A stretch of DNA of 64,000 bases, from NCBI GenBank assembly GCA_963847625.1, contig CAWKAR010000060.1, positions 1 to 64,000 on the forward strand, written 5' to 3'. The stretch comes from a candidate division FCPU426 bacterium (lineage in GTDB: Bacteria; Oederibacteriota; Muellerivitia; Muellerivitales; Muellerivitaceae). The position numbers were made by a program, and so were the translations under genes. Under the pieces are notes generated by a model. The model worked only from the letters and a program-made list of their open reading frames with translations, did no database searches and was not told where the DNA came from. The stretch's first letter is position 1. Each line of letters opens with the position of its first letter. Shown in pieces: positions 27,651 to 32,338 of the stretch.

Positions 27651-27726
<76 letters not shown>

Positions 27727-27779
27727 TTTATAACGCCCGAAGAAGATTGGCATTACACACGGTATGCCATATTTAATTT

Positions 27780-27899
27780 GGGCGAGAACCTGTGGGAAGA
27801 GGTGCAGAGAAATGGGAGTTTCTCCGGTTGATGGGGGTAACGCAGGGGGAAGTTCCCCTGCGAGCGCGTAAGCGCGTTCGATCCCCGCATCGCCCGCCA
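27780..27899 (+). mobile_element. tRNA-associated multi-hairpin element ending in a decayed copy of the tRNA-Lys 3' end
   Basis: 27876-27899 matches 27703-27726 at 21/24. Three internal hairpins. Homologous to 32103-32221. Confidence 0.65.
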
Positions 27900-27987
27900 A
27901 TTTGTTTCGTTCTAAAATTAATCGAAACGGCCGGTAATGTTTTACCTTTTAAAGAATTCTAAGAACTTTTGAAGGAGATGGTTAAGA

Positions 27988-32011: not shown

Positions 32012-32088
32012 GGGCGAATAGCTCAGCTGGTTAGAGCACCTGCTTTACACGCAGGGGGTCACAGGTTCGAGTCCTGTTTCGCCCACCA
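32012..32088 (+). tRNA. tRNA-Val(TAC)
   Basis: CCTGC-TT-TAC-AC-GCAGG; CCA. Confidence 0.95.
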
Positions 32089-32102
32089 AAATTAAATACC
32101 AA

Positions 32103-32221
32103 GGACGAGAACCTTGGGAAAGGGTCGGGGGAAACGCGAGTTTCCCCGCTTTTATGACGGGTCCATAGGGGAATCCCCCTATGAACGCGAAAGCGTGGTT
32201 CGATGTCCTATTCGCCTACTA
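32103..32221 (+). mobile_element. tRNA-associated multi-hairpin element ending in a decayed copy of the tRNA-Val 3' end
   Basis: GGTTCGATGTCCTATTCGCCTACTA (32197-32221) versus tRNA GGTTCGAGTCCTGTTTCGCCCACCA (32064-32088). Same hairpin order as 27780-27899. Confidence 0.65.
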
Positions 32222-32338
32222 AAATTAATTACCAAGGGCGAGAGCCTTGAGAATGGCTCGGAAGATTGGCTTGTTTTTTTAAGGGTTTTAGTTAGAATTG
32301 CCTTCCCTGCAACAAAATTCTTCTGGCGATCAATAACT

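Follow-up and report, generated by a model that had tools for sequence, protein, structure and literature searches.

The tRNA-Lys(CTT) gene in the window (the whole stretch of 64,000 nucleotides analysed here) is followed by a 120-base unit that carries no gene. This unit belongs to a family of repeats of the kind known as tRNA-linked repeats (TLRs) in E. coli, with a different body and a wider range of targets. On balance, we favour the view that it is mobile but non-autonomous DNA, folding as a single strand and inserted by a nuclease supplied from elsewhere. One body fits more than 20 gene ends, the antisense arm of each copy reaches just past the duplication point, and E. coli repeats share the arm. 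The general layout is the gene end, a trailer, an inverted copy of that end, a body of three hairpins, a direct copy of the end and, often, the trailer again. Behind tRNA-Lys the parts are as follows:

27651–27726, + strand: host tRNA-Lys(CTT) (ARAGORN, Rfam, BLAST)
27703–27726, + strand: segment of tRNA-Lys(CTT) that is repeated downstream (BLAST)
27727–27779, + strand: trailer between tRNA-Lys and the arm, containing a hairpin at 27748–27769
27780–27792, + strand: antisense arm, the host T-arm in reverse complement (sequence comparison)
27805–27826, + strand: body hairpin 1, variable in sequence and with compensatory changes
27841–27862, + strand: body hairpin 2, preceded by a run of G, the most conserved part of the family
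27864–27875, + strand: body hairpin 3, immediately 5′ of the junction, with a GNRA-type loop in this copy and a GNA triloop in most members
27876–27899, + strand: direct copy, T-loop through CCA, of the 3′ end of tRNA-Lys (21/24)

The original prediction had noted that 27876–27899 repeats 27703–27726 and that three hairpins separate this tail from a 5′ segment. The repeat was confirmed at 21/24 positions (87.5%) with a period of 173 bp, and the hairpins were found at the positions claimed. The 5′ segment at 27780 is likewise in place; the prediction recognised it as an inverted T-arm but took it for one side of an acceptor-like stem, whereas it is an antisense copy of the host T-arm. This arm matches the reverse complement of the host T-arm at 10/13 positions and the T-loop form of most relatives at 11/13, the two mismatches being a TC-to-GA swap typical of the family, and it includes 2 bases upstream of the duplication point. 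The better fit to the T-loop form of other genera than to that of the present host suggests that the copy is old. The 24-base match is weak on its own (BLAST E = 0.37 genome-wide, and tRNA-Lys ties with tRNA-Gly(CCC) as the best match of the tail), so its significance rests on the family. Rfam searches gave nothing relevant, either with the window at gathering score or with 27727–27960 by E-value. In the sequencing-run contigs the best share was 0.21, and one DNA contig spans 27856–28025 with one mismatch. No RNA contig spans the element, and neither an excised circle nor a recent insertion appeared in these contigs, which are uninformative on transcription, termini and circles.

Iterated nhmmer searches of this genome yielded 28 matches at E < 1e-3, and a covariance model (R1) built from 25 copies yielded 28 as well; three of the 28 sit at a contig start duplicating the tRNA-Asn locus, and the copy number is put at about 28. 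The sequences at C12:1-450 and C4:10296-10750 are near-identical tRNA-Asn array sequence and probably represent an assembly duplicate. Units stand behind 10 of the 44 tRNA and tmRNA genes of this genome, and arrays of 2–3 occur at Val, Asn, Glu, Ser and Arg. nhmmer and the covariance model recovered many further tRNA-linked matches here and in relatives; together with the empty alleles described below, they support the original prediction in so far as it proposed a non-autonomous, tRNA-linked mini-element. The region 32103–32221, which had been put forward as a related element, proved to be a second full copy and is followed by what is probably a third unit:

32012–32088, + strand: host tRNA-Val(TAC) (ARAGORN)
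32102–32221, + strand: second full copy (covariance model E = 4e-19)
32102–32114, + strand: arm of the second copy
32126–32148, 32164–32183 and 32185–32196, + strand: hairpins of the second copy
32197–32221, + strand: tail of the second copy, a decayed Val end
32232–32309, + strand: probable third tandem unit, decayed (covariance model E = 0.05), in which the trailer and arm are repeated (arm-like segment at 32235–32247) and the body is lost

Fifteen copies of this genome have an upstream tRNA end, and in 13 of them the cognate tail ranked first among 45 (6 of the 13 with ties), the two failures being members of the Asn array. Tail identity is 16/16 in several copies and 21/24 at tRNA-Lys, that is, near-identical rather than identical. 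Behind the 33 tRNA genes parsed here that lack a unit, the best antisense 13-mer scored 7–9 in 31. Two arm-like segments without a body were also seen, at C24:111250-111300 behind tRNA-Ser(CGA) and at C26:23800-23860, possibly behind tRNA-Gly(CCC), and are likely decayed units. No tRNA-Phe was found in this genome, whose assembly is 94% complete, by ARAGORN or Rfam.

Partial bodies without tRNA ends occur in this genome, and the genes next to these non-tRNA partial copies have no neighbour in common. Some partial bodies lie within a longer repeat (C3:58001-59801 and C57:101299-101358), and two inverted copies bracket an apparent pair of antitoxin and PIN-like toxin plus one further gene, names that come from reading the translations. 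A core resembling hairpin 2 is nested in another palindromic repeat family at C40:5094, C26:68980, C5:23081 and C27:42508.

We then examined how tail and arm relate to the host gene in relatives. Loci were fetched for the best 90 of ~160 listed matches, and 72 copies were kept, namely those that come first after a parsed tRNA or tmRNA end and extend to the T-loop copy; they fall into 23 acceptor groups. Results showed that, among these 72 copies from the best 90 of ~160 matches, the tail best matched the upstream host in 23/23 groups, with a mean score of 12.5 for cognate and 5.4 for non-cognate hosts. The tail similarity on which the original prediction was built is therefore beyond chance at the level of the family (cognate first in 13/15 copies here and in all groups in relatives). 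The segment preceding the body reads as the host T-arm in reverse complement; over 11 bases, 15 copies are exact, and 22 carry the TC-to-GA swap. It follows the host at the variable loop positions (1.73 of 2, against 1.15 when permuted) and at acceptor-side positions (1.79 of 4, against 1.11). Over the two bases upstream of the junction the arm agrees with the real tRNA (1.36 of 2, against 0.67 permuted, with 0/20000 permutations as high), compared with 0.34 for the element's own downstream copy; identity is 0.82 at the first of these positions and weaker, 0.54, at the second, and beyond them the match ends (0.48 against 0.62). The inverted arm thus matches the real tRNA and reaches 1–2 bases past the duplication point. 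The swap is found almost exclusively where it results in tandem G-A pairs: 24/32 copies with a CGAG loop core carry it, and the same arm tetramer occurs in 1/40 copies without that core. As for the direct copy, its 11-base T-loop core is intact in 2/72, the usual damage being a 1–2-base insertion or else a substitution.

In the body, compensatory changes were found at 13/16 pairs in a MAFFT alignment and at 14/16 when 113 matches were placed in a model-fitted alignment, which is biased towards the model. For the loop of the last hairpin, 90 bodies were counted by pattern, with a GNA triloop in 55, AAA/TTT in 13 and GNRA in 3. According to the accessible text of PMC13037366, such mini-hairpins melt at 76.5 °C as DNA and at 39 °C as the RNA counterpart, so that loop type and stability as DNA, as far as that source goes, point to single-stranded DNA. 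The + strand of the tRNA-Lys element folds with z = −3.97 (0/200 shuffles equally stable) and the − strand with z = −4.48; as both strands fold, folding is no pointer to RNA. Overall, it is probable that the body acts as folded single-stranded DNA and has spread by insertion.

How such a unit might arise is suggested by its layout, in which both orientations of the host end start from nearly one point; to produce it, some step must copy the target both forwards and backwards. We tentatively propose the simplest scheme, a staggered cut, as possible rather than probable. The target would be cut near the gene end, leaving a 1–2-base 3′ overhang, and both strands of the downstream broken end would be joined through the body. 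Replication would open the joined end to give inverted copy, body and direct copy, and a working gene end would be restored by copying the sister chromosome, often with crossing over at the trailer hairpin. Where the trailer has a terminator-like hairpin, the host end, this hairpin and the arm form one long imperfect palindrome. The damaged downstream T-loop would then immobilise the unit, and unequal exchange between direct copies would generate arrays. The match of the arm to the tRNA need not date from insertion, as later template switching or selection could have maintained it, and template switching between arm and gene could yield both the fit of the arm to the gene and the tandem G-A swap.

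As the inserting enzyme, a small GIY-YIG nuclease is a conceivable, somewhat doubtful, candidate. The class is plausible because SsnA, in the accessible text of its description, cuts single-stranded DNA a few bases beside its own hairpin (PMC11893778). A 70-codon GIY-YIG gene with one internal stop (L021:867-1076, − strand, contig C3, no tRNA upstream) has an arm-like 11-mer on one side and, on the other, a hairpin with a tRNA-Asn tail. The same hairpin and Asn tail also precede two element copies (L012, L020), and the pattern of the arm-like 11-mer occurs 23 times in the genome, 8 times within elements. The layout of this pseudogene is that expected of an autonomous form, at a single locus and with a different hairpin. 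Intact homologs of the 70-residue protein show 77–80% identity, and this clade is present only in this genome among the 31 of the family. At one further locus, a GIY-YIG gene and the body both stand behind tRNA-Asn.

Other GIY-YIG genes were considered and rejected as partners. A group encoding 93 residues (L029, L032, L033, L039, L157-L264) stands behind tRNA-Asn, Gln, Leu, Met, Asp or tmRNA at 41/108 loci, a set that includes more distant matches, and has its own hairpin leaders, mostly without a tail repeat. The body was found at 0/108 of these loci, the arm at 0/39 and a tail repeat at 5/39; the group scores highly in only 6/31 family genomes, five of which are themselves rows of the alignment, and is also found in families that lack the body. 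Likewise, Ssn-like and housekeeping GIY-YIG genes had the body at 0/22 family loci, with other repeats or none at their flanks. None of the Y1 transposases and integrases of this genome is flanked by the body. Two further arrangements were noted: a GIY-YIG gene at L037:1274-1810 lies between two long partial tRNA-Ser(GGA) copies, its frame ending within the second, and a Y1 transposase gene at C24:99900-101500 is flanked by long inverted repeats, the same flank being found at a second Y1 gene (C39:22600).

The behaviour of the arm could be explained differently if it were a guide, with the excised single-stranded unit pairing across the insertion point and a strand-transfer enzyme of HUH or GIY-YIG type swapping in the unit together with a replacement end. 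An arm that spans the junction and fits the intact tRNA better than its own copy is what a guide would be, the near confinement of the swap to tandem G-A pairs looks like selection for pairing, and the scarcity of intact downstream T-loop cores points the same way. However, more than 20 unrelated targets would need rewriting of arm and tail, for which pairing alone is insufficient, the GIY-YIG loci surveyed above provided no enzyme, and the sequencing-run contigs showed no circles. We therefore regard a guide as unlikely.

The preferred reading, that of mobile DNA, was next set against the occupancy of sites among relatives. R1, which includes sequences from several of the 31 family genomes, found matches in 30/31 of them, with 1 to 28 copies each, and in 0/68 other genomes of the phylum, under stricter filters than in the family scan. 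A strict pattern scan of species-representative genomes gave one locus, in a family member, the pattern being too strict for mapping the range. The body was absent from viral contigs, by exact pattern, and from the plasmids searched. The tRNA-Lys(CTT) gene is occupied by a unit in 2 of the 23 genomes that have it; the remaining 21 carry empty alleles. In a genome of the same genus the gene is empty and has the same glycosyltransferase gene downstream. Such patchy occupancy can fit loss as well as gain.

These 21 unoccupied genes weigh against the idea that the unit is kept as a cis-acting RNA, whether one co-transcribed with the tRNA that acts on it as an antisense switch or aids its processing, or a small RNA of the type of RrA/B/F and RtT in E. 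coli. In its favour, units in the inspected loci are oriented as the host gene is, some G-U pairs appear on the + strand in the model-fitted alignment, and the E. coli TLRs are, in the accessible text of PMC8144298, transcribed, processed and bound by Hfq and CsrA. Yet many copies lie behind a terminator-like hairpin, the loops are of the DNA mini-hairpin type and both strands fold equally, which makes this a rather improbable account; RNA roles may be secondary.

Targets other than tRNA 3′ ends bear on the origin of the duplication. The body, together with direct and inverted host copies, was found at the 3′ end of a flavoprotein gene at 7 loci, which may represent one inherited insertion. 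This gene ends in an HPHPT motif and is presumably dihydrolipoamide-dehydrogenase-like; in the present genome it is an empty site. The same body occurs behind two protein genes, at their terminators, and at the 5′ end of a tRNA; the shorter forms at Asn and Glu have their junction further downstream. Among targets the junction takes several positions and is thus not fixed to the T-loop, and one body is reused at more than 20 different targets.

Duplication of a tRNA 3′ end is the usual signature of an integrase, and the original prediction had cited it as the attL/attR mark of tyrosine-integrase elements. A shrunken remnant of tyrosine-integrase islands would account for this duplication and for the two copies that follow a displaced tRNA-Arg fragment beside an integrase. 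A plain scar of this kind is not supported: one body is used at many targets, its junctions take several positions and extend to a protein gene and to terminators, and the inverted arm is specific to each target. Scars at att sites make no inverted host copy. No integrase was seen within the units inspected. Moreover, the copies without a tRNA stand behind displaced Arg, Asp, Gln or Asn tails, with integrases next to the Arg fragment and to the intact Asp and Gln(TTG) genes, which suggests that islands came later and pushed these tails away from tRNAs already bearing a unit. An origin as an integrase remnant is accordingly improbable.

The original prediction had also offered a tRNA-mimic RNA; it would bear CCA after an acceptor-like stem and be excised by tRNA-processing enzymes. 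The acceptor-like pairing does exist in the tRNA-Lys copy, which forms 6/7 acceptor pairs plus NCCA, and 55/72 copies end in CCA. As a trait of the family it fails: among these 55, 7 pairs are formed in 0, 6 pairs in 5 and 3–5 pairs in 50, and to this are added the damaged T-loop cores, the lack of an Rfam match, and the copies at protein genes and terminators without a tRNA end. The tRNA-Lys copy is among the few near-complete cases, which explains how the idea arose, and a mimic is very unlikely. The T-arm is a common integrase site, and the arm can pair with it, so the unit might shield tRNA genes from islands by masking the site or as a decoy; the copies on displaced Arg, Asp and Gln tails suggest that islands entered unit-bearing tRNAs, and we give this almost no credence.

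With non-autonomous mobile DNA as the preferred reading, several known systems invite comparison. Folded single-stranded att sites are known in integron attC and CTX-phi attP. In likeness to these sites and to tRNA islands, the inverted copy, the ~90 bases and the direct copy would fold into a target-site duplex with a bulged base; unlike tyrosine-recombinase elements, the present family has neither a fixed crossover site nor a linked recombinase, and its ends are fitted to each target. REP/BIME/REPIN-RAYT and IS200/IS605 are non-autonomous hairpin DNA moved in trans, with the target chosen by base pairing, in IS200/IS605 through a guide tetranucleotide. To our knowledge, neither REP/REPIN nor IS200/IS605 makes a 25–60-base target duplication or an inverted copy of the target. 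REPINs are also covered in the accessible part of a mobilome preprint (10.1101/2024.07.17.603846); the present family differs from REP/REPIN-RAYT in that the three Y1 transposase genes of this genome lack the body at their flanks. With the Ssn system, as set out in the accessible text of PMC11893778 (a GIY-YIG enzyme with NTS/SRM hairpin repeats), it shares dispersed hairpin repeats that act as single-stranded DNA, and small GIY-YIG genes are common in this bacterial family. In contrast, the Ssn-like genes of the family are flanked by other repeats and not by the present body, and the paper contains 0 mentions of tRNA, its accessible text describing no host-derived arms.

The closest likeness is to the TLRs of E. 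coli. In the accessible text of PMC8144298 these comprise 22 units at ten loci, ending in 18–19 bases of the 3′ end of the upstream RNA gene, known since 1978 and in 2021 still without a known function. Like the present family, the E. coli repeats (tyrT/tyrV with RtT (rttR), lysT-lysQ, rrA/B/F) have no gene, stand behind a stable-RNA gene, end in its 3′ end, and come as 1–5 units per locus, at several loci per genome and with a similar period. The bodies differ: no sequence match was found, R1 finds nothing in two E. coli loci at E ≤ 1, and there is no Rfam match. The direct copy here spans 24–25 bases from the T-loop and is usually damaged in the loop, against 18–19 bases in E. coli; the present repeats are also found at the end of a protein gene, at terminators and at the 5′ end of a tRNA, and are limited to one bacterial family. 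For the tyrT region, the accessible part of the mobilome preprint reports raised coverage and ascribes RNA-gene signals to RNA/DNA hybrids, not circles (10.1101/2024.07.17.603846). Neither the inverted arm nor the present family is described in the literature searched, outside which lay most subscription journals as well as Rudd 1999 and Egan and Landy 1978.

An antisense T-arm 13-mer is nonetheless present at the K-12 loci, behind tyrT (10/13), tyrV (10/13) and lysQ (12/13); the tyrT and tyrV arms bear the same TC-to-GA swap as the present family, and a mini-hairpin of that kind closes all three repeats. For the remaining four lys genes the same test gave 6–8/13, and a shorter arm was seen by eye in their units. 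It is a long shot, and one we would not expect to hold, that TLRs from E. coli to uncultured phyla are self-retargeting DNA, each element copying its landing site in antisense into its 5′ end and using this arm as a programmable guide towards the corresponding gene end of other genomes, with a GIY-YIG protein of ~70 residues as sole enzyme. If the arm does act as a guide, the unit would amount to a programmable insertion system of very small size, and one that spares essential genes. With the antisense T-arm copy and the terminal mini-hairpin shared by the tyr and lysQ units, the origin of TLRs becomes a question of DNA insertion that can be tested in E. coli.
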